Assembly (NCBI GenBank): GCA_963744145.1
Contig: CAVUSO010000001.1
Span: 4,672,001 to 4,736,000, forward strand
Direction of reading: 5' to 3'
Length of the DNA stretch: 64,000 bases
Origin: an uncultured cyanobacterium
GTDB taxonomy: Bacteria; Cyanobacteriota; Cyanobacteriia; Cyanobacteriales; CAWUOF01
This document shows, one piece after another, positions 3,059 to 63,233 of this stretch (positions are counted from its first letter, which is position 1; every line of letters begins with the position of its first letter). The notes beneath the pieces were generated by a model. That model was not told the origin of the DNA, did not search any database, and worked only from the letters and a program-made list of their open reading frames with translations. The position numbers and the translations under genes were made by a program.

Positions 3059-3289
3059 CAGAAATGTTCCTCTCGCTCCAAACCCAATCGGAATATCGAC
3101 CGGGTGATGGAGCGAGTTGATCAGATTGATTAGAGTAATTAAGGATTATTTGCGATCGCTTGATTCCAACTAGATATTGCTGAGAAATCGTCATAATTTA
3201 GTAGTCTTGACCGGCGATAGAATTCATTTTCTGATAAACTAATTGATTAGCGGAAAACTGAATCTAAATGCCATCCCAGGAGAACTCAG

Positions 3290-4204: not shown

Positions 4205-4436
4205 CATAAATGTTCCTCTCGCTCCAAACTCAATCGGAATATCAACCGCGTGATGGAGCGAGTTTCTAATATTGATTAGAGTAATTAAGGATTATTTGCG
4301 ATCGCTTGATTCCAACTAAATATTGCTGAGAAATCGTCATAATTTAGTAGTCTTGACTGGCGATAGAATTCATTTTCTGATAAACTAATATATGAGCGGA
4401 AAACCTGAATCTGACTGTTATCATAGGAGAACCCAG

Positions 4437-21405: not shown

Positions 21406-22035
21406 CTACAAAGTAAGGTTCAAAATCTGCTGTAGGGATAAATTGAACTGGGGAAAAGTTGGGGAAGCGATCGGCGTATTTCCTGTGAATGGAATCATCT
21501 GATATTCTCCGTCAATCAAACTACAAACAAAAAATGTGGGTTTTTTAGGATTACCGATAAATTTTCTTGCCCCTAAAGCTGCGTAATCGATTATCCAATA
21601 TTCCTCAATCCCCATTTCCTCATAATCTCGCAGTTTATTATAGTAATCATCACGCCAATTAGTTGAAACCACCTCAACGATTAATTTGACTGAATTACAA
21701 TTTTGGATAATTGATTCACTTTCCCACCGGGATTCCGCTCCAATAACTTCTTGATTTAAAACGATGATATCTGGTTCATAACCTGAGTTTTCCCTAGAAG
21801 GTTTGACAATTGCTTCCCTAGGAATAGTCCAAATACCTCCTTTACCGATCTGTCTAATCATGATCAATAATTGCTCAATCAGGGAACCAGTTAGATTTGA
21901 ATGTTTTCCCTTTGGTTTAGGCATTTCGATGATTACTCCATCATGCAGTTCGTATCGGATTTTCGAGTTTTCAGGATACCATCTGATAAATTGGTCAAAG
22001 TTATATAATTTGGGTTCAGATTGGGCTTGATTCAT
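21406..22035 (-). CDS. Uma2 family endonuclease
   Basis: YELHDG, EPD, VEVVSTNWRDDY, GIEEYWIID. Confidence 0.9.
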   Translation of the reverse strand: MNQAQSEPKLYNFDQFIRWYPENSKIRYELHDGVIIEMPKPKGKHSNLTGSLIEQLLIMIRQIGKGGIWTIPREAIVKPSRENSGYEPDIIVLNQEVIGAESRWESESIIQNCNSVKLIVEVVSTNWRDDYYNKLRDYEEMGIEEYWIIDYAALGARKFIGNPKKPTFFVCSLIDGEYQMIPFTGNTPIASPTFPQFNLSLQQILNLTL

Positions 22036-27145: not shown

Positions 27146-28027
27146 TTAGGATGACCAAATTCGTTGCAGATTGAGTACAAATCCAGGTAAAATATTTTCA
27201 CCAGAAATGCTTTGAGGTGCTTTTAAAACTTCCACTTCTTGTCCAGGACGATAAATTTCTACTTCTTGTCTTTTGCGGTTGATTAACCAACCTAGACGAC
27301 AACCATTTTCCAGATATTCTTGCATTTTCTGCTGAGTTTTTTTCAAGTTGTCATTAGGTGAAAGGATCTCAATCACAAAATCAGGACACAGGGGAATAAA
27401 TTTTTCTTTTTGTGCTTGAGTCAATCCATCCCAACGGGATTTTTCTACCCAAGCAACATCAGGTCATACCAATTCACCATGAAGATACATTGATGTATAT
27501 TGATCTGTGGGTGAGGGTGGGTTTTGATGATTAGTAGGTAAATGTCAAACATCTCGGTGAACCCGGGCGGGTTTTTCTAATTAATTGGTAAATTTCAAAA
27601 ATCTGGGCGAACCCGCCCCTACTACAGAAATCCGCAAATTGAGGATAAAATTGGTAGGGGCAGGTTCACCAGTCAATTTTGCCACCAACAGATCACCATT
27701 ATAAACCTGCCCTGGCCTAACAGATCAACCTCAGATTAAGTGCAATTTCATAGTTAATTGGTATGAGCGATCTGCACCATTCGGTAAAGTAAACCCTGTG
27801 GATGAATCAAAAACTTCACCAAGTTGATTTTGATCATTCCAAAACCAAATTTGAGCGTTAAATGTAGAGTTGATTTTACCCGTTTCTCCTCCTGTAGGTG
27901 GCATAATAATTAATTCTCCCTGAGCATTGCGTTCTAATTTTAAATCAGAATTTTCTTCACATAATTGAAAAAATTGCTCTCTGGTTAGTTTAATTACAGA
28001 ATTGAGGTTGAATGTAAGTGCTGTCAT
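27146..28027 (-). pseudogene. Uma2 family endonuclease interrupted by a 300-bp MITE
   Basis: ...FTLPNGADRS | PDVAWVEKSRWDGLTQ... joins in frame when 27464-27763 is removed. Confidence 0.9.
27464..27766. mobile_element. MITE with TACCAATT...AATTGGTA ends (family A)
   Basis: Terminal inverted repeats TCATACCAATT / AATTGGTATGA, internal GTAGGGGC REP-like arms; disrupts Uma2. Confidence 0.85.
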
Positions 28028-29054: not shown

Positions 29055-29402
29055 TTGTTATTACCGAATAATGAAAATGCCTTTATTGCTCCAGCAAAAC
29101 TTACAGAATATTTACTTTCAGAGACACACAAAGATGGAAAGTCAAAAGCCAAGTTTTTTCGTAAATATGGATTTAATGAAGAAAATGTTGATCTTTTGGA
29201 GAAAGAGTTATTAAACCTTGCTCGTGATCGTGAGGTTACAGAAATTGAACCGACCGAATACGGGATAAAATATAAAATAGTAGGGACAATTAACACCCCA
29301 GTTGAGAAAACAATCAGTATTCTAACGATATGGATTATTAACACAGACCAAGATTGTCCTGGATTTGTTACTGCAAGACCATTTTCAGAAAAACGGAGTT
29401 AA
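29055..29402 (+). CDS. DUF6883-like protein
   Basis: KLTEYLLS.TH.DGKSKAKFF..GF, TEYGIKY, TIWI, FVTA pattern. Confidence 0.75.
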   Translation: MLLPNNENAFIAPAKLTEYLLSETHKDGKSKAKFFRKYGFNEENVDLLEKELLNLARDREVTEIEPTEYGIKYKIVGTINTPVEKTISILTIWIINTDQDCPGFVTARPFSEKRS

Positions 29403-29408
29403 ATATAT

Positions 29409-29822
29409 ATGTTTAAAGAGTTAGATATAGTCAATTTAACCATTGATATTGACGACCATAATTTAAAGAAAGGGCGTCATGGAACTATTGTTCATTGTTA
29501 CAATAATCAACAAGCATTTGAGGTGGAGTTTGTTGACGATGACGGAGATACACTAGCACTATTGACCTTAGAAAAATCTCAGATTGAATTAGAGCAAGAA
29601 AGTCTTAAAAGCCATGTTGTAGAAATTATTAATACCTTACCTGTTGATGATCTAGCTGACATTAGAGATAACGCTGAAGTTTTACAGTTCCTACATAATC
29701 ATGCCAGATTTAACATTATTAATTCCACCGAAATAACCCAGTTATTAAAGTTGAAACAAGACCGTGATGAATTAATTACTAAGTTACTTGACCAAATCAA
29801 CTGTAAAAATATTCAATCTTAG
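29409..29822 (+). CDS. DUF4926 domain protein with C-terminal extension
   Basis: KELDIV.L...LKKG..GTIVH.Y....FEVEF...G.TLALLTL pattern. Confidence 0.8.
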   Translation: MFKELDIVNLTIDIDDHNLKKGRHGTIVHCYNNQQAFEVEFVDDDGDTLALLTLEKSQIELEQESLKSHVVEIINTLPVDDLADIRDNAEVLQFLHNHARFNIINSTEITQLLKLKQDRDELITKLLDQINCKNIQS

Positions 29823-29837
29823 GTTGCTATGCTCAAA

Positions 29838-30263
29838 TCAAATCGGGATCGATTCCTTGCGATCGCAAATAAGCAGCCAATCGTTCTTTCTGTTGCTGTT
29901 GTGCCCATTACCACTGGCTAATTCGATCGCAATTAAGGGCACACTATATTCGCGCCAGATCACATAAGAACGGCGAATTTGACCGTCTAAGAGGGGTAGA
30001 ACGTTAGGGACATAGAACCAATCCGGTGCTTCTGCTCCCCGTTCGGTCGGATCAGTTTCCCGCCAGTATATCCCACTATCTTGTCCGATCGCATATTGAC
30101 CATCTGGATGGAGAGTTTGTAATGTAGTTTCCAGAGAGTCAGTCAGCAAGATACATTGGGGATGTTCTTGAAAGTTTTTCACGAAAGTGCCGTCGGATTC
30201 AGGTAATTGAGTATGATCTGGAAAAGGAGGGGGTAAGATGGTGGGGTCAAGACTTATGCCCAT
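29838..30263 (-). pseudogene. Uma2 family endonuclease, internally deleted
   Basis: Homologous to 39356..40123 up to IELASGNG, then jumps out of frame to the terminal KERLAAYLRSQGIDP DNA. Confidence 0.85.
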
Positions 30264-30391
30264 AGTTCTGAGCGATCCACAACAGGAATGACGAGATGCT
30301 TGATTTAAGTATAGCAATTTGAGATTGAGCAGTTTAATACTTACTACTAAAAAATCAATCCAAACAGCGAATATATAGAGGAGATCCACCA

Positions 30392-30709
30392 GTGAAAATT
30401 GAAATTGATGGTCAAGATGCGGTTAGCGCTGCTGAGGAATTGCTGAGAATTGAAGGGCTTGAAGGTAGTTATAAAATAGTTGATGAAGTGGAGCGAGAAG
30501 GAATATTAGCTACGATCGCTACAATCGTAGGGATTGCCAGTGGTACGGTGACAATTGCTAAAGAGATATATGAGTGGTATCAGAAATACCAGAAGTCTCA
30601 AGGGGCAAAGGCAAAAATTGAGAAAGTTTTAATTATTGGTTCTAATAATCGTCGTTTGTTGCTCAAGGATGCGACGGTAGAGCAGATTCAGAAGATTCTA
30701 GAAGATTAG
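30392..30709 (+). CDS. Small single-TM protein co-encoded with CHAT protease (EACC1-like candidate), copy 1
   Basis: GGAG RBS plus GTG start; hydrophobic ILATIATIVGIASGTVTIA segment; duplicated at 35233. Confidence 0.75.
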   Translation: MKIEIDGQDAVSAAEELLRIEGLEGSYKIVDEVEREGILATIATIVGIASGTVTIAKEIYEWYQKYQKSQGAKAKIEKVLIIGSNNRRLLLKDATVEQIQKILED

Positions 30710-30719
30710 GACAGAAACC

Positions 30720-33700
30720 ATGAAAATCCTCCACATTAGTTTAACTGAACTGGGTAAGGATTATGCTGCTTTGCGTTACTTTTGGGAGAATCCTCCTGAT
30801 TACAAGGAACACAGATTACCTCTGGCTGAAATTAAAGATTTAGGCAATCAATCAGAAGCTGATTACTATACTCGTATTCCTGTGGATTATGCTACTACCG
30901 GACAATCACTCTATAACTGGTTAGATCAGAGTGATCGCTTGTTAGCTAATGCTTTAAATCAGCCTCGTCAGGACGGGTTAGTAATTGCGATCGCGACGGA
31001 TAAAGGACTAGCAAAGTTGCCTTGGGAATTGTTGCATGATGGGAATTGTTTCTTAGTAGAGAAAAGACCTGCAATTATTCCGGTGCGGTGGGTGTCTAAT
31101 GGTCAACCGATCGCGATCGCTAACTCTCCACAAAATCGACCTCTTAATCTGTTATTTATGGCGACTTCGCCTTTAGGAGTTGAACCAGAATTAGAGTATG
31201 AAGCGGAAGAAGGGCAAATTTTAAAGACAACCCATACTCCAGTAAACTTGATAGTAGAAGAAAGTGGCTGTTTAACTGAATTGGGTCGTCTGGTTCGAGA
31301 ATATGAAAAAGGATATTTTGATATTTTTCATTTAACAGGTCATGCAACTACTGATGGGGGAAAACCCTGCTTTTTGACTGAAGACGAATACGGCAACCGA
31401 GTTGATAGCAGTACCGCCAAAATATACGATGAGCTGACATCTCCCTTACCGTCTTTAATTTTCCTCTCTGGTTGTCGAACTGGTTATTCTTCTGAGGGGA
31501 CAGTTCTCTTAATGGCCGAAGAATTATTAAAGATGGGAGGAACAGCAATTTTAGGATGGGGGGAAAGAGTCCGCGATACCCATGCAACAGCGGCTGCGAG
31601 TAAATTGTATTGTCATTTGGCTCAAGGGGACGCGATTACAGATGCACTATCTTTTACCTACAAAACCTTGATTAATGACCAGGTACAAGAGTGGCATAAA
31701 TTACGGTTATATGTGGCAAATACCTTACCCCAGGCGTTAGTAACTCCTTTAAGAACAAAGGGACGCAAACAATTGCCCAAACCGACGACAACAATCGAAT
31801 TTAGGGATGATGAACAACGGTTAAGGGTGGCAAAGAGAGAAGATTTTGTTGGTCATCGCCGCCAGTTACAGAACTGTTTGCGAACTCTGAAGCGAGATCA
31901 GGAAAAAGTAGGGGTATTAATTCATGGGATGGGGGGATTAGGAAAAAGTAGTATTGCCTCGCGATTGTGGGATAGACTACCTGAACATGAAAAAGTTTTC
32001 TGGTGGCGACAAATTGATGACTCCAACTTGATAAAAAAGCTATCATCCAAATTAATAAAAACCGAGTTACGGGCTATTCGTAATGATTTAAACACTAGCG
32101 ATGACAGTTTAGAAATAAAACTCGCTAATTTATTCAATCAATTGGCAGAACTGGGCGAAAACCCGTTTCTCTTGATTCTTGATGATTTTGAATGGAATCT
32201 CGAACCCCGTCAAGGTCGATTTATTCTCAAGCCTGAAGTTGCGACAGTTTTGTCAGCATTAGTCTGGGCAATCCAAGAGACGGGAACTGGGCATCGGATT
32301 TTGATTACCTGTCGCTATGAGTTTAATTCTGAGTTATTGGAATTTTTCTTCTCACAAGGTCTAGAATCTTTTAAAAAAGCTGAATTAACTAAAAAGCTGA
32401 ATCGCCTAGAACATTTTAGTTCTGGTAAGCTCTCTGAATATCTACGCGATCGGGCGCTAAGTTTAGCCGATGGCAATCCTCGTTTACTGGAATATCTCAA
32501 TGATGAAGTTTTAGGTAAACCAGATGCAGCAGCTAAATTAATCGAGCTAGAACAAAGTCCTGAACTGTGGAAAGACAAAATTATTTGGGAGGAACTGTAT
32601 AAGGTTATTGATGAGCCATTACAACGGGTTATTAGCCATTGCCTAATCTACCAAATTCCTGTACCGATGATAGCTTTAGAAGGAGTTTGTGGCTCTCCCG
32701 TAATAGCGTTGGAAAATCCCGTTTTTCGGCAGGGGAGAGCACGGAGCAGGGTAGAAGCTTATCACATAAGCTTATGGAACTTAAATAATTTTTACTTATC
32801 ACCGCAAGTACGGGACAACCGAGTTTGTGACGCTCTTCCTAATTACCAACAACAGTTACAACGGGGTCAAAAACTGGGGCTTATTGAAATTAGTCCTGAA
32901 ATTCAAGAAGAAAATCAAGTCTATTATGTCTCTCGAATTTTACCTCATATAATTCCCAATATTCGACTTTCTGAAGCACCAGAAGTTTATTCGTTGTACA
33001 AGAATGCTCATGAAATATTACATGAGTTATGGGGAAAAATTTACAATGAAAGTAAAGAAAAGTGGCAGGAGATTTTTCGGTTATTGTTTGCGGATAAAGA
33101 AAATCCAGAGCGATTCAGACAGGGATTCTTTAAAATGTTGGCAGTTCAATGCCATTTAGAAGCAGATGAAGCCTTAGAATCAGAAATGAGGAAACTAAAA
33201 GATGAGTTGTCAACGGAGAATTTTTGCGGTCAACTAGAGAACTATTTAAGTCAAAAAGAATGGAGAAAAGCTGATGAGGAAACTGCTTGGATCTTTTATC
33301 AAATGATGGTGCAGAAAGGCTACAAAAATTGGGATGAGTTATGTAAAAACTTTCCCAATGAAATCCTCAACCAGATTGACCAGCTTTGGGTTGATAACAG
33401 TAAAGGACGCTTTGGATTCAGTATTCAAAAACAAATTTGGGAAAGTGTTAATTCAGAAACACGTAAATCGGAAAAATTTGGAAACCTAATAGGTTGGAAT
33501 AAAATAGTAACAGAAAAATGCAATTGGATGTACTACAACACTTTGCTATTCTCGACTGAAGCTGCCACTGGAAGCCTTCCAGCCCTTTGTTATATGAAGG
33601 GAGAATTCATCAAGACAAATGGTGGAGTTTGGGTTGGTGGTTGGATGTTTTATTGTGTAGTTGGGTTTGGGTGGTTATGTGAGTGTGGGTGGGTTGGATT

Positions 33701-33737
33701 TCTTCTCTCACGCAAAGATATAAGTTATAAAATATAG
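30720..33737 (+). CDS. CHAT (caspase-like protease) - STAND/NB-ARC-type NTPase - GUN4 domain protein, copy 1
   Basis: LPWELL, FHLTGHA (His), LSGCRT (Cys), Walker A GMGGLGKS, Walker B LILDDFE, GUN4 WRKADEET...IDQLW...GRFGFSIQKQIW. Confidence 0.9.
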   Translation: MKILHISLTELGKDYAALRYFWENPPDYKEHRLPLAEIKDLGNQSEADYYTRIPVDYATTGQSLYNWLDQSDRLLANALNQPRQDGLVIAIATDKGLAKLPWELLHDGNCFLVEKRPAIIPVRWVSNGQPIAIANSPQNRPLNLLFMATSPLGVEPELEYEAEEGQILKTTHTPVNLIVEESGCLTELGRLVREYEKGYFDIFHLTGHATTDGGKPCFLTEDEYGNRVDSSTAKIYDELTSPLPSLIFLSGCRTGYSSEGTVLLMAEELLKMGGTAILGWGERVRDTHATAAASKLYCHLAQGDAITDALSFTYKTLINDQVQEWHKLRLYVANTLPQALVTPLRTKGRKQLPKPTTTIEFRDDEQRLRVAKREDFVGHRRQLQNCLRTLKRDQEKVGVLIHGMGGLGKSSIASRLWDRLPEHEKVFWWRQIDDSNLIKKLSSKLIKTELRAIRNDLNTSDDSLEIKLANLFNQLAELGENPFLLILDDFEWNLEPRQGRFILKPEVATVLSALVWAIQETGTGHRILITCRYEFNSELLEFFFSQGLESFKKAELTKKLNRLEHFSSGKLSEYLRDRALSLADGNPRLLEYLNDEVLGKPDAAAKLIELEQSPELWKDKIIWEELYKVIDEPLQRVISHCLIYQIPVPMIALEGVCGSPVIALENPVFRQGRARSRVEAYHISLWNLNNFYLSPQVRDNRVCDALPNYQQQLQRGQKLGLIEISPEIQEENQVYYVSRILPHIIPNIRLSEAPEVYSLYKNAHEILHELWGKIYNESKEKWQEIFRLLFADKENPERFRQGFFKMLAVQCHLEADEALESEMRKLKDELSTENFCGQLENYLSQKEWRKADEETAWIFYQMMVQKGYKNWDELCKNFPNEILNQIDQLWVDNSKGRFGFSIQKQIWESVNSETRKSEKFGNLIGWNKIVTEKCNWMYYNTLLFSTEAATGSLPALCYMKGEFIKTNGGVWVGGWMFYCVVGFGWLCECGWVGFLLSRKDISYKI
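32691..32820. mobile_element. 130-bp ISL3-like MITE inserted in frame in the CHAT-NTPase-GUN4 gene
   Basis: 8-bp TSD GAGTTTGT (32683-32690 and 32821-32828); imperfect TIRs GGCTCTCCCGTA / TACGGGACAACC; absent from the paralog. Confidence 0.9.
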
Positions 33738-33821
33738 GCTTTTCAGGTATTTTGTCAAGCTAATTTTTTAGTTATTTTTTTACGAAAACATAAATAAGTA
33801 GGCGACTGAACAGCCACCTGG

Positions 33822-33897
33822 CATAGCAATTAGCCATCACAAATTTTTCAGCCACCTGGAGAATTTCTGAATTAGTCGATTTCCGTTCGTCCCAAGA
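33822..33897 (-). pseudogene. 3' fragment of Y1/HUH transposase-like gene
   Basis: High nucleotide similarity to about 38659-38735 (TNSEI.QVAEKFVMANCY). Confidence 0.75.
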
Positions 33898-34079
33898 TAT
33901 TAGTAACAAGTTAAGGTGATGGGTAAATTAGTTGCGATCGCACAATAGTATTAAATTTAATTCCTAACTGACAAATAGAAAGCGCGATCGCATTTTGTGG
34001 GAGAGCTGAGGTGCGATCGCGACTCAAAAAAATATTAATCAGGTATTTATTCTGTTAAAATTTTGAGATTGTTTTGAAT

Positions 34080-34502
34080 TTATAACTGAGTAGGAATAAT
34101 TAAATCTATAATCTGATTTTTATTCTGACGATAAACTAGAAAATCACGATCTAATGTTAATACACAACTGCCAGCAATTAACTCGGTCATTCTCACTAAA
34201 CAAGCATCGGCTAAAGACATTGGTACATTCTGATAACGTTGCAGCAGTTGTCTAATCGTTTCGCTGTCATCATTCAGTTGAAAAGGAATTTGAATAATTT
34301 TTCTACTGATTAAATTTATCACTGCGTCCTGACCTTTATAGACATCTTGCAACAGAAAACAAGTTTCTGTTATTACCCCTTCGCAAGTCAATAAATGTGG
34401 TTCAATTATTTTCCATTGTTCAATTGCCCAGGAATGTAGATTTTCTTTTTTATTAATAAATGCAACTAATACTCCTGTATCTAGTAACACTTTTTTTCTC
34501 AT
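34080..34502 (-). CDS. VapC-type PIN domain toxin
   Basis: VLLDTGVLVA, VITET, MSLADACLV, TLDRDF. Confidence 0.9.
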   Translation of the reverse strand: MRKKVLLDTGVLVAFINKKENLHSWAIEQWKIIEPHLLTCEGVITETCFLLQDVYKGQDAVINLISRKIIQIPFQLNDDSETIRQLLQRYQNVPMSLADACLVRMTELIAGSCVLTLDRDFLVYRQNKNQIIDLIIPTQL

Positions 34503-34753
34503 TTTTTACCCATTCCTTTTAGATATTCTTTATTCGTCCCTAAATCACCAGGGCCAAAATCAACAGATCCAGCAAATTCTTGGGCTGCTTCATAAGCAGA
34601 GATGGGTTGTTTTTCCTTAACTTGCTGTTTCTCCTGCTTTTGGGTTTTATATCGCAAAAACTCAATAAATTCCAAAACAGTATCCTGCTGTTCTATTGTT
34701 AGCATTTCAAGATAATCTAAAATTACATCTTTTTTATTGATCCCCATACTCAT
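34499..34753 (-). CDS. Putative antitoxin (DUF2281-like)
   Basis: QDTVLEFIEFL, AGSVDFGPGDL; overlaps the PIN gene start. Confidence 0.8.
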   Translation of the reverse strand: MSMGINKKDVILDYLEMLTIEQQDTVLEFIEFLRYKTQKQEKQQVKEKQPISAYEAAQEFAGSVDFGPGDLGTNKEYLKGMGKK

Positions 34754-34770
34754 AGTTATATTCTCCTAAA

Positions 34771-35094
34771 TTAAATTAAATCGGGATCGATTCCTTGCGA
34801 TCGCAAATAAGCAGCCAATCGTTCTTTCTGTTGTTGTTCTCGATCAGCTCGTACCGTTTCAGCATCAGTCCGTTCGGTCGGATCAGTTTCACGCCAGTAT
34901 ATCCCACTATCTTGTCCGATCGCATATTGACCATCTGGATGAAGATTTTGGAGTGTAGTTGACCGGGAGTCAGTCAGCAAGATACATTGGGCATGTTCTT
35001 GAAAATTTTTCACGAAGGTGCCGTCAGATTCAGGTAATTGAGTATGATTGGGAAAAGGAGGGGGTAAGATGGTGGGGTCAAGACTTTGGACCAT
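34771..35094 (-). pseudogene. Uma2 family endonuclease, large in-frame internal deletion
   Basis: N-terminus up to YWRETDPTER fused directly to the terminal coiled coil. Confidence 0.85.
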
Positions 35095-35232
35095 AGTTCT
35101 GAGCGATCCACAACAGGAATGACGAGATGCTTGATTTAAGTATAGCAATTTGAGATTGAGCAGTTTGTTCAGGTTTAATACTTACTACTAAAAAATTAAT
35201 CCAAACAGCGAATATATAGAGGAGATCCACCA

Positions 35233-35553
35233 GTGAAAATTGAAATTGATGGTCAAGATGCGGTTAGCGCTGCTGAGGAATTGCTGAGAATTGAAGGGCT
35301 TGAAGGTAGTTGTAAAATAGTTGATAAAGTGGAGCGAGAAGGAATATTATTAGCTACGATCGCTACAATCGTAGGGATTACCAGTGGTGCTGTGACCATT
35401 GCTAAAGAAATATATGAGTGGTATCAGAAATACCAGAAATCTCAAGGGGCAAAGGCAAAAATTGAGAAAGTGCTAATTATTGGGTCTAATAATCGTCGTT
35501 TGTTGCTCAAGGATGCGACGGTAGAGCAGATTCAGAAGATTCTAGAAGATTAG
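35233..35553 (+). CDS. Small single-TM protein co-encoded with CHAT protease, copy 2
   Basis: Near-identical to 30392..30709. Confidence 0.75.
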   Translation: MKIEIDGQDAVSAAEELLRIEGLEGSCKIVDKVEREGILLATIATIVGITSGAVTIAKEIYEWYQKYQKSQGAKAKIEKVLIIGSNNRRLLLKDATVEQIQKILED

Positions 35554-35562
35554 GCAGGAACC

Positions 35563-38427
35563 ATGAAAATCCTCCATATTAGTTTAACTGAACAGGGTAA
35601 GGATTATGCTAGTTTGCGTTACTTTTGGAATCATCCTGCTGATTACAAAGAACACAGATTGTCTCTGGCTGAAATTAAAGATTTAGGCAATCAAGCAGAG
35701 ACTGATTACTATACTCGTATTCCTGTGGATTATGCGATTACTGGACAAGCACTCTACAACTGGTTAGATCAGAGCGATCGCGTGTTAGCCAATGCCTTAA
35801 ATCAGCCCCGTCAGGAAGGATTAGTAATTGCGATCGCGACGGATAAAGGAATGGCAAAGTTGCCTTGGGAATTATTGCATGATGGGAAGTGTTTCTTAGT
35901 AGAGAAAAGACCTGCTATTATTCCGGTGCGGTGGGTGCCTAATGGTCAACCGACGATCACGATCGCTAATTCTCCGCAAAATCGACATCTTAATCTGTTA
36001 TTTATGGCCACTTCTCCTTTAGGAGTTGAACCTGAATTAGATTATGAAGCAGAGGAAGGGAAAATTTTAAAGGCGACCCAGCGTACTCCAGTGAATTTGA
36101 GAGTAGAAGAAAGTGGCTCTTTAAGTGAATTGAGTTATCTGGTGCGGAAACAGGAAAAAGACCCAAACCATCCTGATGTTAGCTATTTTGATGTTTTTCA
36201 TTTAACAGGTCATGCAACTTATCAGGAGGGAAAACCCTGCTTTTTGACTGAAGACGAATATGGCAACCGAGTTGATAGTATTACCACAGAAATACGCGAT
36301 GCGCTGACATCTCCCTTACCGCCTTTAATTTTCCTCTCTGGTTGTCGAACTGGTTATTATTCTGAGGAAACAGTTCCCTCAATGGCAGAAGAATTATTAA
36401 AGATGGGAGGAACAGCAATTTTAGGATGGGGGGAAAGAGTCCGTGATACTGATGCAACAGCAGCTGCGTGTAAATTATATTGGCATTTGTCTCAGGGGGA
36501 AGCGGTTACAGATGCTCTATTTTCTACCTATCAAGCCTTGATTCGACAACAAGCACACGATTGGCATAAATTACGGTTATATGTGGCAAATACCTTACCC
36601 CAGATGTTAGTAACTCCTGTAAACACAAGAGGACGAACACAATTGCCTAAACCGAAATTTAGGGATAGTGATCAGCAGTTAAAAGTGGCAAGGGGTGAAG
36701 ATTTTGTTGGTCGTCGCCGTCAGCTCCAGAACTGTTTGCGAATACTAAAGATAGATAATGACAAAGTAGGAGTATTAATTCATGGCATGGGGGGATTGGG
36801 AAAAAGTAGCATTGCCATTCGACTGTCGGATCGGCTATATGAACATGAAAAAGTTCTGTGGCGACAACAAATTGATGCCTCAAGCTTGATAAAAGAGCTA
36901 TCTGATAAATTAATTAAACCAACGTTACGCGATATTCGTGATGATTTAAACAGCAATGACAGATTATATTTTAAGATAGCTAATCTATTCAATCAATTAG
37001 CAGAACTGGGTGAGAAACCGTTTCTCTTGATTCTTGATGAATTTGAATTGAATCTAGAACCCCGTCAAGATCGATACATTCTCAAACCTGAAGTTGCTAC
37101 AGTTTTAGAAGCATTAGTTAGGGCAATCCAAGATACGGGAACTCAAAATCGAATTATTATTACCTGTCGCTATAAGTTTGATTTTAATTTATTGAATTCT
37201 TTTTTCTCTCAAGGTCTAGAAGCTTTTCAAAAAGCTGAATTAACTAAAAAACTGAACCGCTTAGAACATTTTAGTTCTGATCAGCTCTCTCAAGAGCTAC
37301 GCGATCAATCGCTAAGTTTAGCCGATGGCAATCCTCGTTTACTGGAATATCTCAATGATGAAGTTTTAGGTAAACCAGATGCAGCAGCTAAATTAACGGA
37401 ACTAGAACAAAGTCCTGAACAGTGGAAAAACAAAATTATTTGGCCAGACTTGTATAAGCTTATTGATGAGCCTTTACAACAGGTTCTTAGTCATTGCTTA
37501 ATCTATGAAATTCCTGTACCAATGGAAGCTTTAGAAGTAGTTTGTGCTGCTCTTCCTAATTACCAACAGCAATTACATCGAGGGCGTGAACTGGGATTCA
37601 TTGAAATCAGTCCTGACGTTCAAGCAGAAAATCAAGTCTTTCGTTTCTCTCGAATTTTACCTCATATTATTCCTAATATCCGACTTCCTGAAGCACCTGA
37701 AGTTTATTCTTTGTACAAGAAAGCTTATGAAAAGTTACATCAGTTGTGGGGAAACAAACAAAATGAAAGTCCGGAAAAGTGGCAGGAAATTTTTCGGTTA
37801 TTGTTTGCCGATCAAGAAAATCCAGAACGATTCAGACAGGGATTCTATGAGATGTTGGCAGTTCAATATAATTCAGAAGCAGATCAAGCCTTAGAATCAG
37901 ACCTGAGACAACTGAAAAATGAATTATCAACAGATAATCTTTGCCGTCAATTAGAGGATTATTTAAGGCAACAAGAATGGAGAAAAGCTGACGAGGAAAC
38001 TGCCTGGATTTTTTATCAAGTGATGGTGCAGCAAGACTATGAAGATTGGTCCGAGCTATGCAGAAACTTTCCCTGCGAAACCCTCAAGCAGATAGATCAG
38101 CTTTGGGTTGATAACAGTCAAGGACGTTTTGGATTCAGCATTCAAAAGCAAATCTGGGAAAGTGTGGGCGGACATCCTGATGCAAAATATGAAATATATG
38201 AAAAATTTTGTGATAAAGTAGAATGGAGAAAAGAGGGCGAATGGTTGCTTTATAGTAACCTTACTTTTAATAATAACACTACTCCAGAGGGCTACCTCCC
38301 AGTCCTACCGCTCGCTCGCTTTCGCGAGTTTGGGGGTTGGTTGGGATTTATGGGGATGGGATACAAGGGGGATTGGAGATTTGTGAGGGTTGTTGTTGGG
38401 GTGGGTCTCTTCTCTCGCGCAAAGTAA
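35563..38427 (+). CDS. CHAT - STAND NTPase - GUN4 domain protein, copy 2
   Basis: Same motifs as copy 1 (FHLTGHA, LSGCRT, GMGGLGKS, LILDEFE, GUN4 core); divergent C-terminal tip. Confidence 0.9.
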   Translation: MKILHISLTEQGKDYASLRYFWNHPADYKEHRLSLAEIKDLGNQAETDYYTRIPVDYAITGQALYNWLDQSDRVLANALNQPRQEGLVIAIATDKGMAKLPWELLHDGKCFLVEKRPAIIPVRWVPNGQPTITIANSPQNRHLNLLFMATSPLGVEPELDYEAEEGKILKATQRTPVNLRVEESGSLSELSYLVRKQEKDPNHPDVSYFDVFHLTGHATYQEGKPCFLTEDEYGNRVDSITTEIRDALTSPLPPLIFLSGCRTGYYSEETVPSMAEELLKMGGTAILGWGERVRDTDATAAACKLYWHLSQGEAVTDALFSTYQALIRQQAHDWHKLRLYVANTLPQMLVTPVNTRGRTQLPKPKFRDSDQQLKVARGEDFVGRRRQLQNCLRILKIDNDKVGVLIHGMGGLGKSSIAIRLSDRLYEHEKVLWRQQIDASSLIKELSDKLIKPTLRDIRDDLNSNDRLYFKIANLFNQLAELGEKPFLLILDEFELNLEPRQDRYILKPEVATVLEALVRAIQDTGTQNRIIITCRYKFDFNLLNSFFSQGLEAFQKAELTKKLNRLEHFSSDQLSQELRDQSLSLADGNPRLLEYLNDEVLGKPDAAAKLTELEQSPEQWKNKIIWPDLYKLIDEPLQQVLSHCLIYEIPVPMEALEVVCAALPNYQQQLHRGRELGFIEISPDVQAENQVFRFSRILPHIIPNIRLPEAPEVYSLYKKAYEKLHQLWGNKQNESPEKWQEIFRLLFADQENPERFRQGFYEMLAVQYNSEADQALESDLRQLKNELSTDNLCRQLEDYLRQQEWRKADEETAWIFYQVMVQQDYEDWSELCRNFPCETLKQIDQLWVDNSQGRFGFSIQKQIWESVGGHPDAKYEIYEKFCDKVEWRKEGEWLLYSNLTFNNNTTPEGYLPVLPLARFREFGGWLGFMGMGYKGDWRFVRVVVGVGLFSRAK

Positions 38428-38620
38428 TCTGTAAGATATAACAATTTCAGGCCATTTGTCAAGCTTAATTTTGGTACTAATTTTTACGAAAACATCGGCT
38501 TTCCGCCAATTCGATACCTGGCACTGTTCCGTCTGTCCGTTTTGGCTGTCTGTCTGTTGTTGGAATATATATTTTAGACAGAATAAAGACAGAATGGCCA
38601 GGTGACCAGAACAACACAAA

Positions 38621-38956
38621 CTAAGAATCATTGAAAAACTGTGCAGCGACCTTGGGGTCATAGCAATTAGCCATCACAAACTTTTCAGCTACCTGGCGAA
38701 TTTCTGAATTAGTCGGTTCCCATTCATCCCAAGGCAATTTCATCTGTCCAGGAATACGTCTTTTCGTTTCCTTTGCACTCAAAACCTTGGGCAGTAATTT
38801 ACTTCCCCAGTGACAACGGTTTTCCGGTTTGGGTTGAGGTTTATATTTCTTACAGAACTTGCGATATTTCTCGGCACATTCATCCAAACTTTTCCCCAGA
38901 GCCAAAAAAGCAGGATGCCACTGAGTTAGTCCATCATCGCTCAATCGGTCATATAC
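38621..38956 (-). pseudogene. C-terminal half of a cyanobacterial IS200-like/RAYT-like Y1 (HUH) transposase, 5' part lost at a MITE end
   Basis: VYDRLSDDGLTQWHPAFLALG.SLDECAEKYR.FCKKYKP...HWGSKLL matches, from memory, the C-terminus of a cyanobacterial Y1_Tnp family. The HUH motif itself is not present. Confidence 0.65.
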
Positions 38957-39355: not shown

Positions 39356-40123
39356 ATGACTTCTGTGATCAAAACGACATCAAGGTTAAGACCAGATTTA
39401 CCCGACCATACTGAATTACCTGACTCCGACGATAACTTCGTGAAAAATTTTCAGGAACATCCTCAAAGTATTCTCCTCACCGATTCGATTCAACCAGTAT
39501 TAGACCGTTTACATCCAGATGGACAATATTGTATCGGACAGGACAGTGGTATTTATTGGCGATTAACTGAACCACCTCTAGATGGAGCTGAAGCACCGGA
39601 TTGGTTTTATGTCCCCGATGTCCCCCGGACACTGAATGGACAACTACGACGATCTTATGTGATCTGGCAAGAATTAACTCCCCCAGCGATCGCGATCGAA
39701 TTTGTCTCCGGAAATGGGAAAGAAGAAAGAGATCCTACTCCCTTAAAGGGAAAATTTTGGGTCTATGAACAAGGAATTAAAATCCCCTATTATGCGATCT
39801 ATGAAGTCCAGAAAGCGAGGGTGGAAGTCTATCAACTCCAAGACGATCGCTATGTCAAATTAAGTCCAAATTTCCAGGGACGTTATCCGATTCACTTGAT
39901 GGGAGTAGAATTAGGAATCTGGTCCGGAAGATATCAAACCATGCAACTACCCTGGTTAAGATGGTGGGATGAGCAAGGAAACTTGTTATTAACGGGAAGT
40001 GAAAGAGCCGAAATCGAGCAACGGGAAAAACAACTAGCCCAACAACAACTTGAACAGGAACGACAACGAGTTGAACGTTTAGCGGCTCAATTACGCAGTT
40101 TAGGGATTGAACCGGAATTATAG
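39356..40123 (+). CDS. Uma2 family endonuclease (intact)
   Basis: LPDSD..FVKNFQEHPQS, APDWFYVP, IEFVSG, KFWVYEQ, WLRWWD. Confidence 0.9.
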   Translation: MTSVIKTTSRLRPDLPDHTELPDSDDNFVKNFQEHPQSILLTDSIQPVLDRLHPDGQYCIGQDSGIYWRLTEPPLDGAEAPDWFYVPDVPRTLNGQLRRSYVIWQELTPPAIAIEFVSGNGKEERDPTPLKGKFWVYEQGIKIPYYAIYEVQKARVEVYQLQDDRYVKLSPNFQGRYPIHLMGVELGIWSGRYQTMQLPWLRWWDEQGNLLLTGSERAEIEQREKQLAQQQLEQERQRVERLAAQLRSLGIEPEL

Positions 40124-41996: not shown

Positions 41997-43547
41997 ATGA
42001 TGACACCAACAGGAAAAGTATATTTGGTGGGTGCTGGTCCGGGAGATGTTGCGTATCTGACTGTGCGATCGCAACAACTTCTGAGTCAAGCTCAAGTTTT
42101 AGTCTATGATGCACTGGTAGATCGTAATTTATTGGGTTTAGTCCCTCAAAATTGTCACCTGTTTAATGTGGGTAAACGTGGTGGTAAACCTTCTTTAGCA
42201 CAAACTAAAATTAATCATCTCCTGGTAGAACAATGTCAAAAAGGTTACCAGGTAGTACGTCTGAAAAGTGGTGATCCATTTATTTTTGGTCGCACTACTA
42301 CAGAAATTCAAGCTTTAATTGCAGCTAATTGTGAATTTGAAGTCATCCCGGGAATTTCGACCGCACTAGCTGCACCTTTATTAGCTGGAATTCCTTTAAC
42401 TGATCCGGTTTTAAGTCGTTGTTTTGCTGTTGCTACTGCTCATAATCCAGAAGAATTGGATTGGGAAATTTTAGCAAATATTGAGACTTTGGTAATTTTG
42501 ATGGGAGGAGGAAATTTACCAGAAATTATCCATCAGTTACATAAACATGGGCGATCGCTTTCTTGTCCAATTGCGATTATACGCTGGGTTGGTCATCCTC
42601 AACAACAGATTTGGACTGGTACTTTAGGAAATATTATTACCCAAACTCAAAATGAGTCTCTTTCTCCCTGTGTCATTGCGATCGGTGAAGTCGTAAATTT
42701 AAGAACGTATTTACAAATTCCACCCACTCCGGAGTTAGTTCTTATGAATCAAAAAAATTCTCTTTCCCATCCTCTACTGAACAAAACTATTTTAGTAACT
42801 CGTGCGATTAGTCAATCCCATGATTTTCGCGATCTGCTCGAATCCCAAGGAGCAAAAGTAATTGAAATGCCCACTTTAGAAATCGGTCCTCCCTCTAGTT
42901 GGGTAGCTTTAGATCATGGGATTAAACAAATTCATACTTTTAACTGGTTAATCTTAACTTCTACTAATGGGGTAGATTATTTTTTTGACAGATTAAGGGT
43001 TTTAAAGAAAGATATTCGCGCTTTAGCTGGATTAAAAATTGCTGTAGTTGGTCAGAAGACCGCAGCAAGTCTCAAACAGTATCAGATTCAACCAGATTTT
43101 ATTCCTCCCAATTTTGTAGCTGATGACTTAGTCGCAAATTTTCCTGAAGATGTAGCTGGGAAAAAAATTATGTTTCCTCGAGTCGAAACCGGAGGAAGGG
43201 AAGTATTAGTAAAGGAATTAGTGGAGCGAGGAGCGGAAGTAGTTGAAATTCCTGCTTATGAATCGCGCTGTCCCCAAGCAATATCCCCTCTAGCATTATC
43301 AGCATTACAGGAACATCAGGTAGATGTAGTTACTTTTGCTAGTTCTAAAACTGTCCAATATTTTGTGAATCTGATTAAAGCTCACGACGGTATATCGTTA
43401 GAAAATGTTTTAATCGCGTCTATTGGTCCACAAACTTCCCACACCTGTCAAACATTATTTGGAAAAGTAGATATAGAAGCAGAAGAATTTACTTTAGAAG
43501 GGTTAACTAACGCCATCATCAATTTTTTTACTTGCGCGAGTAAATAA
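41997..43547 (+). CDS. cobA: Uroporphyrinogen-III C-methyltransferase / uroporphyrinogen-III synthase fusion (CobA-HemD)
   Basis: VYLVGAGPGD and RLKSGDPFIFGR, then HemD motifs ILVTRA, TSTNGV, FASSKTV, SIGPQT. Confidence 0.93.
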   Translation: MMTPTGKVYLVGAGPGDVAYLTVRSQQLLSQAQVLVYDALVDRNLLGLVPQNCHLFNVGKRGGKPSLAQTKINHLLVEQCQKGYQVVRLKSGDPFIFGRTTTEIQALIAANCEFEVIPGISTALAAPLLAGIPLTDPVLSRCFAVATAHNPEELDWEILANIETLVILMGGGNLPEIIHQLHKHGRSLSCPIAIIRWVGHPQQQIWTGTLGNIITQTQNESLSPCVIAIGEVVNLRTYLQIPPTPELVLMNQKNSLSHPLLNKTILVTRAISQSHDFRDLLESQGAKVIEMPTLEIGPPSSWVALDHGIKQIHTFNWLILTSTNGVDYFFDRLRVLKKDIRALAGLKIAVVGQKTAASLKQYQIQPDFIPPNFVADDLVANFPEDVAGKKIMFPRVETGGREVLVKELVERGAEVVEIPAYESRCPQAISPLALSALQEHQVDVVTFASSKTVQYFVNLIKAHDGISLENVLIASIGPQTSHTCQTLFGKVDIEAEEFTLEGLTNAIINFFTCASK

Positions 43548-53363: not shown

Positions 53364-53514
53364 ATTCCCTTCACTGCTTTTTACCTTAGCACTGATTGTA
53401 ATTAAAGTGGAAGAAAATGTCAAGAGGAATCCATAAAAATCATTAAATAGAAAATTTCTATTTAATTTCTATTTAATTTCTATTATTTGCCTAATTTACT
53501 CTCTATTTAAGTTT

Positions 53515-62540: not shown

Positions 62541-63233
62541 ATGGATGATTTAGATAAACGGCTAGCTAATTTAATTACCCAACTACAGCAAGCTCCACCA
62601 CAAACGAGTAAATGGCGATCGGCTATGAATTATTTACTGCGGGAAATTCAGCAACTCCCTGGATTAGTCAAATCTTCTCACCCAGACTATCCGACTGCAT
62701 TAAACCTTACCTTAGTATGGGTCAGCCATAATATAGCTAATTTTCAGCTACGTTCTTCTTCGGTTTCAAAGAGTTTAGAAATCTGGATTAACGGCTATCA
62801 TCGTTGGCGAATTAAAGATTTGTATGCTCCAGATAAAGATGCTGCAATTAGCTTAGATGCTCCGATTCAAGAAGAAGCTGGTGAAAGAACTCTACTTGAA
62901 CAAATACCTGCTTTTACACTTAGCGGTTTGGATGGTTTAATTGAAAATAACCAAAAAGAAACGACTCAACGTATCGGGTTAGAATTAGAGGTATACATCG
63001 AACAAGATCCAGAAGAAAACCTTAAAAATAGCTATCCTCGCTCGTACCCTGAATGTAACTGTCAATTTCTCAGCAAAAGACGAATCCTAAAAGAACCCCC
63101 AGACAAATTTGCAGATGTCGCAAGAGAACTCAATATTAAATACACTACAGTTAATTCTCATTGGCAGAGGAAATGCCAACCATTGCTACAAGAAATCGCT
63201 AAAAATCTGGGATATCAACAGGAGCAACAATAA
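62541..63233 (+). CDS. Sigma-70-like / HetZ-like transcription factor
   Basis: WING....RIKD, ISLDAPI, YIEQDP, PECNCQ.L, C-terminal HTH (ARELNIKYTTVNSHWQRKC.P.L). Confidence 0.7.
   Translation: MDDLDKRLANLITQLQQAPPQTSKWRSAMNYLLREIQQLPGLVKSSHPDYPTALNLTLVWVSHNIANFQLRSSSVSKSLEIWINGYHRWRIKDLYAPDKDAAISLDAPIQEEAGERTLLEQIPAFTLSGLDGLIENNQKETTQRIGLELEVYIEQDPEENLKNSYPRSYPECNCQFLSKRRILKEPPDKFADVARELNIKYTTVNSHWQRKCQPLLQEIAKNLGYQQEQQ

Follow-up and report, generated by a model that had tools for sequence, protein, structure and literature searches.

Tandem EACC1-like and CHAT-STAND-GUN4 gene pairs in a cyanobacterium: two probable protease-gated cell-death modules of a known kind

What do two small genes, each placed directly upstream of a large gene for a caspase-like protease, do in a cyanobacterium? 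We asked this of a locus in the window, by which we mean the whole 64,000-nucleotide stretch of DNA that was analyzed, from an uncultured member of the Cyanobacteriales. The first-pass annotation described a protein of 105 or 106 residues encoded about 10 bp upstream of each of two CHAT genes. The open reading frames are as it described, with small-to-large gene spacings of 10 nt in copy 1 and 9 nt in copy 2. The features of the locus are as follows.

30392..30709, plus strand: copy 1 small gene, EACC1-like, 105 aa, GTG start (open reading frame and translation)
30720..33737, plus strand: copy 1 large gene, CHAT-STAND-GUN4, 1005 aa (open reading frame and Pfam)
35233..35553, plus strand: copy 2 small gene, EACC1-like, 106 aa, GTG start (open reading frame and translation)
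35563..38427, plus strand: copy 2 large gene, CHAT-STAND-GUN4, 954 aa (open reading frame and Pfam)
30050..30391, no strand assigned: upstream duplicated region, made up of a divergent intergenic segment and the 5' portion of a Uma2-family gene (~90 to 98% nucleotide identity to 34880-35232)
32688..32825, plus strand: in-frame MITE-like insertion in the copy 1 large gene, 138 nt = 46 aa, residues 657 to 702 (gap in the copy 1/copy 2 alignment)
33582..33734, plus strand: copy 1 hypervariable C-terminal tail, 51 aa, after the G-x-L-P motif, in G+T-rich DNA (homolog comparison)
34771..35148, minus strand: Uma2-family gene, a truncated duplicate of 29838-30389 and the left-hand part of the duplicated unit (85/93 residues identical)
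34080..34753, minus strand: PIN/VapB-like toxin-antitoxin pair between the copies (Pfam PIN, 4.6e-09; NCBIfam TA_VapB, 1.4e-4, below cutoff)

Between the copies, the small proteins are identical at 101 of 106 residues (95%) and the large proteins at 700 of 998 (70%). A GAGGAG Shine-Dalgarno sequence, read from the nucleotide alignment of the two copies, lies 8 to 9 nt upstream of the GTG of the copy 1 small gene. Scans of positions 29800 to 38900 for promoters (28 versus 23.5 ± 5.3 in shuffles) and terminators (7 versus 6.6 ± 2.6) gave counts at the level of shuffled sequence. The surroundings are loosely island-like, with Uma2 nucleases, the VapBC pair, and, at a distance of 11 kb, a NACHT protein. 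The PIN/VapB-like pair is a neighbor outside the two-gene module, and a neighborhood scan found no recognized defense system adjoining the module. A uroporphyrinogen-III methylase/synthase gene lies at 41997 to 43547, 3.6 kb downstream, which may be a coincidence.

Is the small protein a real gene product, and to what is it related? At E ≤ 0.001, 216 relatives were found in one database, and another held 172 cluster representatives; as judged from these homologs, the reading frame is therefore not a chance one. The listed family members carry no Pfam domain and are named "hypothetical" where they are named at all. The Pfam model of EACC1 (PF19953) matched neither small protein even at E ≤ 10, found nothing in the same genome, and gave no hit above its cutoff in any of the 301 cyanobacterial genomes sampled. 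Scans of the small protein against Pfam, NCBIfam, and PADLOC returned only noise (circular bacteriocin, 15.6 bits; PADLOC "Effector/Peptidase," 13.8 bits). A comparison with the EACC1, Trypco, and Pepco families, as the first-pass annotation had suggested, led to EACC1. A profile of the small-protein family (24 sequences) matched a profile of PF19953-bearing proteins (18 sequences, 6 of them with precomputed PF19953) with an hhalign probability of 99.4% and an E value of 4e-21 over 105 columns. Collinear matches to PF19953 below the threshold were present in 9 of 44 distant relatives scanned. One relative (P0270) reached the copy 1 small protein (P0001) with a phmmer E value of 7.7e-5 in a search of 1.8 billion sequences; the 37 hits of the P0270 search included 6 close relatives carrying precomputed PF19953. 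There is no direct Pfam match to EACC1, so membership rests on this profile-profile and transitive evidence, and the PF19953 miss is a limit of the Pfam model and not a biological criterion. Because its family profile matches that of the PF19953-bearing proteins, the small protein is, by sequence comparison, a divergent branch of EACC1 in cyanobacteria.

The build of the small protein is also that of EACC1: about 100 to 115 residues, with one hydrophobic segment rich in small residues between alpha+beta elements. The best 19-residue Kyte-Doolittle mean, at residue 38, was 1.97 in copy 1 and 2.08 in copy 2. This hydrophobic segment had been read as a single transmembrane helix. Its hydrophobicity stands, but AlphaFold2 (AF2) confidently modeled the small protein as a soluble fold (pLDDT, 87.5; pTM, 0.81), weak only at the block with loop 32-38 (block mean, 63), with strands at residues 2-6, 23-31, 39-48, 78-82, and 88-90. 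In this model, the hydrophobic segment is a buried strand and not a transmembrane helix. The strands agree with the arrangement given in a preprint on another EACC1 protein, in which the N-terminal fragment lies in a sheet with two C-terminal strands (10.1101/2025.11.14.688446). In the linker before the segment, R or K occupies position 35 in 95 of 98 aligned family members, and 72 of the 98 have E or D at position 36. A Foldseek search of the model against the PDB returned nothing at E ≤ 0.001. The highest Z in a wide VIA-align search was 7.3; its matches were ferredoxin-like or ribosomal-protein arrangements of a generic sort, with no informative relative among them. These blanks carry no weight on whether the fold is new.

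The large protein of copy 1 consists of a CHAT domain (approximately residues 60 to 322), a STAND NTPase (approximately 371 to 541), a helical region, a GUN4-like domain (837 to 962), and a hydrophobic Gly/Trp-rich tail. The layout of copy 2 is the same, with CHAT at approximately 60 to 332, the NTPase at approximately 381 to 524, a helical region, the GUN4-like domain at 795 to 916, and the tail at 917 to 954. Pfam CHAT (PF12770; cutoff, 24 bits) matched copy 1 with E 8.3e-17 (62.0 bits) and copy 2 with E 5.8e-18 (65.8 bits). As had been noted at first pass, the catalytic His (FHLTGH) and Cys (LSGC) are intact in both large proteins, and so are Walker A (GMGGLGKS) and Walker B (LLILDD/LLILDE), read directly from the translations; H204, H208, and C252 are invariant across 38 homologous CHAT domains. 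The AAA_16 model (cutoff, 32.6 bits) matched copy 1 with E 4.5e-10 (40.7 bits) and copy 2 with E 3.8e-09 (37.7 bits), and NB-ARC matched copy 1 with E 7.5e-06 (25.8 bits; cutoff, 23.5). The nSTAND1 domain, which is present in EACC1 systems (Kaur et al. 2021), scored 21.0 bits in copy 1, under its cutoff of 27.1, and exceeded the cutoff in 6 of 19 CHAT-bearing homologs scanned. This P-loop NTPase thus combines both Walker motifs with a match to a STAND-family model. No PADLOC model recognizes the gene pair as a defense system, and the Avs models in PADLOC (PADLOC-DB v2.0.0, 2023, which may hold no Avs12 model) gave no match at E ≤ 0.1.

Does the pairing hold beyond this locus? The earlier expectation that homologs of the small protein would be linked to proteases was borne out: a CHAT homolog is present in 71 of 80 related loci, directly downstream of the small gene in 70 and directly upstream in 1. 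Of the nine loci that lack CHAT, four have no more than 672 nt of downstream sequence, and five have the small gene and ample flanks (L034, L045, L062, L067, and L081). Among 38 pairs measured, 28 have their small and large genes no more than 12 nt apart, and in 10 of these 28 the genes overlap by 4 nt. The arrangement is that of EACC1 systems, with the small gene directly 5' of a caspase-superfamily gene whose caspase part is constant and whose C terminus varies. CHAT and NTPase are constant; the C-terminal sensor is GUN4 in 35 of the 80 loci, and TPR repeats were found in 16 of 18 non-GUN4 large reading frames scanned. Both kinds of module occur together in one genome in two cases (L016 with L079, and L009 with L043). 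Of the 301 sampled cyanobacterial genomes, 33 contain the family, as do 23 of 134 genera. It was found only in families of the window's own order (Cyanobacteriales), with 0 of 165 genomes in eight other families.

The first-pass annotation also described the small protein as almost invariant and the large one as diverging toward its C terminus. This holds for the pair at hand: dS between the copies is 0.11 in the small gene and climbs to 0.71 in the GUN4 core, the 290 bp upstream of the small genes are ~95% identical, and divergence grows toward the C terminus of the large protein. As a contrast in constraint, it is unsupported. Across 40 loci of the family, the small protein and CHAT are equally divergent (mean p-distance, 0.41 versus 0.40). 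The near-invariance is peculiar to this pair, and the contrast mostly reflects recent 5' homogenization, not stronger constraint. Gene conversion at the 5' end fits both the dS gradient and the mosaic copies. An old tandem duplication would have given the two copies, and the promoter region, the small gene, and the first part of CHAT would have been homogenized later, while the sensor ends stayed different. Between the copies, dN/dS is 0.15 for the small gene, ~0.48 for CHAT, 0.37 for the NTPase, and 0.19 for the GUN4 core. The insertion in copy 1 has 11 further copies in the same genome (74 to 88% identity), is flanked by 15-nt direct repeats that lie 138 nt from each other, and ends in 21-nt imperfect inverted repeats. 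Copy 2 has the empty site. The element lies in the helical region and may impair copy 1.

What might the large protein sense? Pfam GUN4 (PF05419; cutoff, 29.2 bits) matched its C-terminal domain with E 4.3e-25 (88.9 bits) in copy 1 and E 7e-30 (104.5 bits) in copy 2, and an AF2 model of copy 2 residues 780 to 954 matched the solved GUN4 structures 7E2R, 4XKC, and 1Z3X (Foldseek probability, 1.00). The Asn of the LxNxLR bilin motif of GUN4, which is lost in GUN4 paralogs (PMC10156173), is absent from both copies by inspection, with the register placed by eye. The six residues past G-x-L-P are V-L-P-L-A-R in copy 2, A-L-C-Y-M-K in copy 1, and A-L-I-Y-T-R in most homologs; by eye, none is the LxNxLR with conserved Asn that follows G-H-L-P in GUN4 orthologs. 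The last ~85 residues of the large protein, which are the distal GUN4 part and the Gly/aromatic-rich tail, are hypervariable, and the tail after the GUN4-like domain is 20 to 75 aa long across homologs. The variable stretch is flanked by the conserved anchors L-P-x-L-I-Y-T-R and L-L-S-R-x-D-L and cannot be aligned even among relatives that are ~80% identical elsewhere; the two copies carry different versions. The initial proposal that the GUN4 tip senses a ligand is unsupported as written: the GUN4 fold is present, yet the Asn is lost and the distal part is hypervariable. A diversity-generating retroelement target was considered and rejected, as no template repeat for the variable 3' end was found in the genome. 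A search with the copy 1 tail gave no match but itself, and the copy 2 tail matches elsewhere over at most its last 64 nt, which are the conserved end plus the 3' flank. The only strong PADLOC match of the module is between the GUN4-like domain and PD-T4-6 (E 1e-26 to 1e-30); on sensing by the GUN4-like part of PD-T4-6, literature searches listed, by titles and abstracts, only surveys. Less likely than not, but conceivably, this fold was co-opted as a variable sensor resembling an immune receptor, either diversified by selection to recognize phage proteins or responding at the membrane to a phage-induced tetrapyrrole or bilin change that leads to suicide through pores. If so, its variable surface would be a new sensor type for STAND-caspase-EACC1 modules, common to the genome's kinase-GUN4 proteins and to PD-T4-6-like defense kinases.

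How could these parts work together? The preprint of Evans et al. 2025 (10.1101/2025.11.14.688446) reports that KrAvs12 of Ktedonobacter racemifer, which senses a phage tail connector, cleaves KrEACC1 and that a C152A mutation abolishes cleavage. In the same preprint, only the C-terminal fragment of KrEACC1 is toxic and only cleaved EACC1 makes liposomes leak; the cleavage site, Asp49, is described as putative and derives from a model. On the combined strength of sequence, model, and analogy, each of our copies is probably a two-gene, protease-gated cell-death module (abortive-infection type) of the EACC1-caspase kind. The small protein would be a soluble, self-inhibited monomer, with hydrophobic residues 38 to 58 packed as one strand of a sheet to which the N-terminal beta-alpha-beta unit and two strands of the C-terminal part also contribute. 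The large protein would be a latent STAND switch whose trigger meets the C-terminal GUN4-like sensor with its hypervariable tail. The triggered NTPase would then oligomerize and bring the N-terminal CHAT domains together; this step we infer solely from the STAND class. Active CHAT would cut the small protein at the exposed acidic-basic linker E32-V-E-R-E-G37, before the hydrophobic segment, and the freed C-terminal fragment of ~70 residues would oligomerize into membrane pores that kill or arrest the cell. We place the predicted cut no finer than this linker because the register of Asp49 against the Kr sequence is ambiguous by ~3 residues by eye. For our small/large pair, we infer the cleavage, its exact site, oligomerization, and the trigger. 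The earlier proposal that CHAT cleaves the small protein and so damages the membrane gains support, by analogy, from homology to the EACC1 pair for which the preprint reports cleavage.

The same machinery could instead be a physiological or developmental suicide switch of a filamentous cyanobacterium (such as sacrificial death of cells when filaments break, or death under photo-oxidative or tetrapyrrole stress), set off through the GUN4-like domain by an endogenous tetrapyrrole or bilin and not by phage. The true GUN4 fold of the sensor, the finding of the family only within its own order, and the uroporphyrinogen-III gene downstream, coincidental or not, are in keeping with this; GUN4 fusions have been proposed as readers of tetrapyrrole status (Kaur et al. 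2020, PMC7159879), and the preprint raises stress roles for EACC1-DnaK fusions (10.1101/2025.11.14.688446). We nevertheless consider such a switch unlikely: besides the Asn lost by inspection and the match to anti-phage PD-T4-6, hypervariability of distal GUN4 and tail between close relatives would not be expected if the sensor read an invariant metabolite, and sister modules replace GUN4 by TPR.

Decay, with one or both copies being relics that lack a current function, is less probable still. A MITE does sit within the coding region of copy 1, and the unit lies among truncated or split Uma2 genes. The MITE is, however, in frame and without a stop codon, both pairs keep full-length frames with every catalytic motif, and the copy 1/copy 2 comparison gives dN/dS values under 1 overall and in all but one of its 15 windows. 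We regard as very unlikely the model of 2020, which was proposed from the conserved Gly-rich hydrophobic segment (Kaur et al. 2020, PMC7159879) and in which the small protein, resident in the membrane as sensor or anchor, switches on the caspase, which then processes itself and frees its C-terminal domain as the effector; the small protein would thus be neither substrate nor killer. Although the segment is hydrophobic enough to span a membrane, AF2 buries it; GUN4 and TPR resemble sensors rather than effectors; and the cleavage of EACC1 and the toxicity of its C-terminal fragment alone, as reported in the preprint, argue against this order of events.

The kind of module that we prefer, a protease-triggered cell-suicide or defense system, has already been described, and the find is real but largely ordinary. 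What it adds is the placement in EACC1 of a widespread, unannotated cyanobacterial small-protein family, a clade that Pfam PF19953 and defense-finder models evidently miss. With this placement and the reported cleavage-and-pore mechanism, the genes of the family can therefore be annotated. The tandem pair, with its identical effector ends and different sensor ends, is a natural experiment on the trigger of a GUN4-like sensor in filamentous cyanobacteria.

Among known systems, bacterial gasdermins with caspase-like proteases offer an analogy, drawn in the preprint (10.1101/2025.11.14.688446), in that a protease strips an inhibitory part from a pore former. No sequence or fold relationship to gasdermin was detected, and the small protein is about one-third the size, with a ferredoxin-like alpha/beta model. 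Canonical GUN4, the Mg-chelatase cofactor, shares the fold of the sensor (PDB 1Y6I, 1Z3X, and 7E2R; Foldseek E 4e-6 to 3e-4, probability 1.00) and matches it in sequence (phmmer E 4e-11). Here, in contrast, the domain ends a protease-NTPase, lacks the LxNxLR Asn by inspection, and carries a hypervariable tail. PD-T4-6 (PADLOC PDLC04062) and the genome's own kinase-GUN4 protein, the latter with a similar Trp-rich tail, likewise have a GUN4-like C-terminal domain on a signaling or effector enzyme, but their effector is a Ser/Thr kinase, and they have no EACC1 partner.

The closest comparisons are with EACC1 systems. EACC1 is the constant partner of "System 4" (Kaur, Burroughs, Iyer & Aravind 2020, PMC7159879; PF19953), which has the same 5' gene of ~105 aa with a Gly/small-residue-rich hydrophobic core and the same kind of 3' gene, in which the caspase-superfamily domain at the N terminus is constant, a STAND NTPase is optional, and the C terminus varies. 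"System 4" is described in that paper as prevalent in actinobacteria and sporadic in proteobacteria, whereas the present clade is cyanobacterial, and the linker motif is E-V-E-R-E-G here versus T-R-D-G-G in the PF19953-bearing set. The text of the 2020 supplement, figures aside, holds no EACC1 or GUN4 entries, and the main text and table file of the 2025 preprint make no mention of GUN4. Cyanobacterial CHAT-STAND-TPR modules share the homologous small gene, the NTPase, and CHAT (41 to 59% identity) and differ in having TPR repeats, not GUN4, as the C-terminal sensor. KrEACC1-KrAvs12 belongs to a bacterium of a different phylum and differs in its STAND sensor, which recognizes a phage tail connector; the sensor here is a GUN4-like domain. 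As proposed, both systems follow the same logic, from sensor to protease to a pore of cleaved EACC1, and in both the putative cut falls just on the N-terminal side of the hydrophobic segment (for Kr, by inspection of Table S1, without a tool alignment).

The window carries two copies of a gene pair in which a small ORF lies just upstream of a large CHAT ORF on the same strand, as the first-pass annotation had described (ORF list and translations):

30392-30709, small ORF of pair 1, 105 aa, same strand as its large ORF
30720-33737, large ORF of pair 1, 1005 aa, starting 10 nt after the small ORF
35233-35553, small ORF of pair 2, 106 aa, same strand as its large ORF
35563-38427, large ORF of pair 2, 954 aa, starting 9 nt after the small ORF

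Both small genes begin with GTG, preceded by GAGGAG, and a search of the 7.70-Mb genome (4 contigs) revealed no copy of the small gene besides these two. In both large proteins, CHAT, AAA_16 and GUN4 scored above the curated Pfam cut-offs, as did NB-ARC in the copy 1 protein. The earlier statement that the catalytic His and Cys and the Walker motifs are intact also held: FHLTGH, LSGC, GMGGLGKS and LLILDD/E are legible in both translations, and His204, His208 and Cys252 did not vary among 38 aligned homologous CHAT domains.

Can the small protein be assigned to a known family? Searches against Pfam, NCBIfam and PADLOC returned matches at noise level only, with no family of its own. The Pfam EACC1 model (PF19953, 107 positions) had no match in this genome and scored at or above its cut-off in none of the 301 cyanobacterial genomes sampled. 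Relatives are nonetheless numerous: 216 of 222 candidates matched at E ≤ 0.001, with named members from Kamptonema, Phormidium, Nostoc, Tolypothrix, Calothrix, Aulosira and Aerosakkonema; a precomputed Pfam domain was absent from all 120 relatives listed. Searching exhaustively with the small protein yielded 172 cluster representatives at E ≤ 0.001. Collinear PF19953 matches just under the 23.6-bit cut-off were found in 9 of the 44 distant representatives scanned, the best being P0270 (23.0 bits), and 6 of 37 relatives of P0270 carry a precomputed PF19953 annotation. When a profile of 24 cyanobacterial sequences was aligned with a profile of P0270's set of relatives (hhalign), the two matched end to end over 105 aligned columns (probability 99.4%, E 4e-21), so that the suggested comparison with EACC1 returned a clear profile match. 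On the basis of the subthreshold PF19953 matches, the annotated relatives of P0270 and this alignment, we assign the small protein, as judged from profile comparison, to a divergent EACC1 branch beyond the reach of the Pfam model. In a sample of equal size, the cyanobacterial profile detected the family in 33 of 301 genomes (23 of 134 genera); its matches were confined to families of the window's own order, with none in 165 genomes of eight other families.

The association of the small protein with a protease gene extends beyond this genome. The best 80 related loci were retained, each species being represented by a single genome (97 confirmed relatives). With the copy 2 domains as tblastn queries, a CHAT homologue was located in 71 of them, directly downstream of the small gene in 70 and directly upstream in one (L048), which bears out the proposed linkage. 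A CHAT homologue was absent from the other 9. In four of these the sequence runs out close to the small gene (≤51 nt in L052, L057 and L060; ≤672 nt in L035), and in five (L034, L045, L062, L067 and L081) the flank is ample and the homologue is genuinely missing. The neighbors of the small gene in L034, L045, L062 and L081 are unrelated genes. In L067, a Microcystaceae MAG contig, an extended small ORF is followed by a PIN gene and then by a GUN4 ORF that stands alone, CHAT and NTPase both being absent; this locus looks like a degraded form of the module. The spacer between small and large genes was ≤12 nt in 28 of 38 measured pairs, 10 of which overlap by 4 nt.

Evans et al. (preprint, 10.1101/2025.11.14.688446) report that EACC1 of Ktedonobacter racemifer (Kr) is cut into two fragments by its partner protease, that mutation of the catalytic Cys abolishes both cleavage and toxicity, that toxicity is limited to the C-terminal fragment and that only cleaved EACC1 causes liposome leakage; the cut was placed at Asp49 from a model. 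By our own reading of the sequence printed in their Table S1, Asp49 lies a few residues ahead of the Kr hydrophobic segment. The idea put forward in the first-pass annotation, that CHAT cleaves the small protein and thereby damages the membrane, draws support from homology with this system. The AlphaFold model of the window's small protein (pLDDT 87.5, pTM 0.81, 98 aligned relatives) is a compact alpha/beta fold in which the hydrophobic segment makes up a buried strand (39-48) and then a helix (52-68). The segment shares a sheet with strands from the N-terminal part (2-6, 23-31) and two from the C-terminal part (78-82, 88-90), and the loop at 32-38 is the sole poorly defined stretch. As a model, this fits the self-inhibited soluble monomer described in the preprint. 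Fold searches with it (Foldseek against the PDB; VIA-align) returned no informative relative. Within the loop, position 35 is basic in 95 of 98 aligned family members and position 36 is acidic in 72 of 98. Many bacterial caspase-like enzymes cleave after Arg or Lys. Based on this preference and the conserved pair of residues, the CHAT cut would fall at R35 or E36, a register uncertain by about 3 residues relative to Asp49.

The two copies are identical at 101 of 106 positions in the small protein and at 700 of 998 in the large one. The repeated unit spans ∼30050-33450 and ∼34880-38180; the 290 bp ahead of the small gene (∼95% identity between copies) belong to it, as does the 5' portion of a divergent Uma2-family gene, of which a truncated duplicate remains:

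34771-35148, minus strand, truncated Uma2-family duplicate, 85/93 residues identical

Synonymous divergence between the copies varied by region.

Divergence between copy 1 and copy 2 by region
Small gene: dS 0.11, dN/dS 0.15
CHAT: dS 0.20, dN/dS about 0.48
NTPase: dS 0.41, dN/dS 0.37
GUN4 core: dS 0.71, dN/dS 0.19
Tail: dS saturated, dN/dS not applicable

The rise in dS from CHAT through the GUN4 core to the tail confirms that the large protein diverges toward its C terminus. Relative to L004, the locus with the nearest foreign homologue, the copies are mosaic: in the NTPase, copy 1 is nearer to L004 (0.88) than to copy 2 (0.74), and for the GUN4 core it is copy 2 that is nearer to L004 (0.78) than to copy 1 (0.62). 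The uneven dS and this mosaicism point to an old, recombinant duplication whose 5' end was homogenized recently, which explains why the small protein is nearly invariant in this pair. The description "almost invariant" therefore applies to the pair but not to the family; over 40 loci, its conservation is no better than that of CHAT (mean p-distance of the small protein, 0.41; of CHAT, 0.40).

The large protein of copy 1 also contains an insertion:

32688-32825, MITE-like insertion of 138 nt, in frame, residues 657-702 of the copy 1 large protein, in a helical region

Direct repeats (GAGTTTGTG...) flank it at a spacing of 138 nt, its terminal inverted repeats are 21 nt and imperfect, and 11 further copies (74 to 88% identity) occur in this genome. 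This MITE may or may not impair the copy 1 large protein.

Residues 780-954 of copy 2 were modeled as a GUN4 fold to about residue 920; Foldseek matched the model to 7E2R, 4XKC and 1Z3X (probability 1.00), and phmmer against PDB GUN4 chains gave E 4e-11. The GUN4 part is also matched by the PADLOC PD-T4-6 model (E 1e-26 to 1e-30). By inspection, the domain has no Asn in the place where the LxNxLR bilin motif carries one; that residue is described as essential, and its loss is reported for GUN4 paralogues (PMC10156173). Among 30 GUN4-type homologues, conservation per 30-residue window was 0.55-0.80 over residues 1-870 and then fell to 0.43, 0.29 and 0.27. A conserved G-x-L-P motif is followed by a tail of 20-75 aa that is unalignable even among close relatives:

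33582-33734, hypervariable C-terminal tail of copy 1
38311-38424, hypervariable C-terminal tail of copy 2
loci L004-L080 in other genomes, likewise

In the tail, Gly, Met, Phe, Cys, Tyr and Trp are over-represented, whereas Glu, Gln and Lys are under-represented; the DNA encoding it is A-poor (A 0.23 versus 0.32) and G+T-rich, and its pLDDT is <50 (AlphaFold). Its end is marked by one of two conserved motifs, L-L-S-R-x-D-L or A-Q-R-L-V-x-C-x-I, and the reading frame is thus maintained. A diversity-generating retroelement was considered as the cause of this variability and ruled out because the genome holds no template repeat for the tail. A similar Trp-rich tail and C-terminal motif occur in another protein of this genome, encoded outside the window:

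L085:295-1899, minus strand, Ser/Thr protein kinase fused to GUN4

Stretches of 57-64 nt at the 3' end of copy 2 recur in this gene and at a few other genome sites. It is possible that the sensed signal is an endogenous tetrapyrrole; possibly, the sensor end is a rapidly evolving phage-recognition surface.

The surrounding genes include many of the Uma2 family (putative restriction endonucleases):

21406-22035, Uma2-family gene, intact, matching PADLOC candidate PDC-S03 (1.7e-86)
27146-27424 and 27731-28027, minus strand, one Uma2 gene apparently split into N- and C-terminal halves ∼300 nt apart
29838-30389, 34771-35148 and 39356-40123, Uma2-family genes
34080-34753, minus strand, PIN-domain toxin and VapB-like antitoxin pair between the module copies
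29055-29822, adjacent DUF6883 and DUF4926 genes just upstream of the module, possibly a small pair of toxin-antitoxin type
49242-53423, minus strand, another, unrelated STAND protein (1393 aa) 11 kb downstream, with NACHT, HEAT repeats, NCC-H and NCAB1
937-5387, four tandem paralogous genes, PD-(D/E)XK "transposase" (PDDEXK_2) with DUF4351
62541-63994, DUF1822 protein, preceded by a 230-aa ORF without a Pfam family

DUF1822 is described beside ECF sigma factors in EACC2-caspase neighborhoods (Kaur et al. 2021).

By tblastn, the NTPase was found in 63 of the 80 related loci and the GUN4 end in 35. All 18 scanned large ORFs without GUN4 contained CHAT and AAA_16; 16 of them end in TPRs, and no C-terminal domain was recognized in the other 2. 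nSTAND1, noted within EACC1 systems (Kaur et al. 2021), scored above cut-off in 6 of 19 scanned ORFs that carry CHAT. These data place a clade of a known EACC1-caspase kind in cyanobacteria that current family models overlook. EACC1 System 4 is described as prevalent among actinobacteria, with sporadic occurrence in proteobacteria, and as combining a constant small partner, a constant caspase, a variable C terminus and optional STAND NTPases (Kaur et al. 2020, PMC7159879). The related loci share this organization: a constant EACC1-like partner and a constant caspase are joined to a C terminus that varies.
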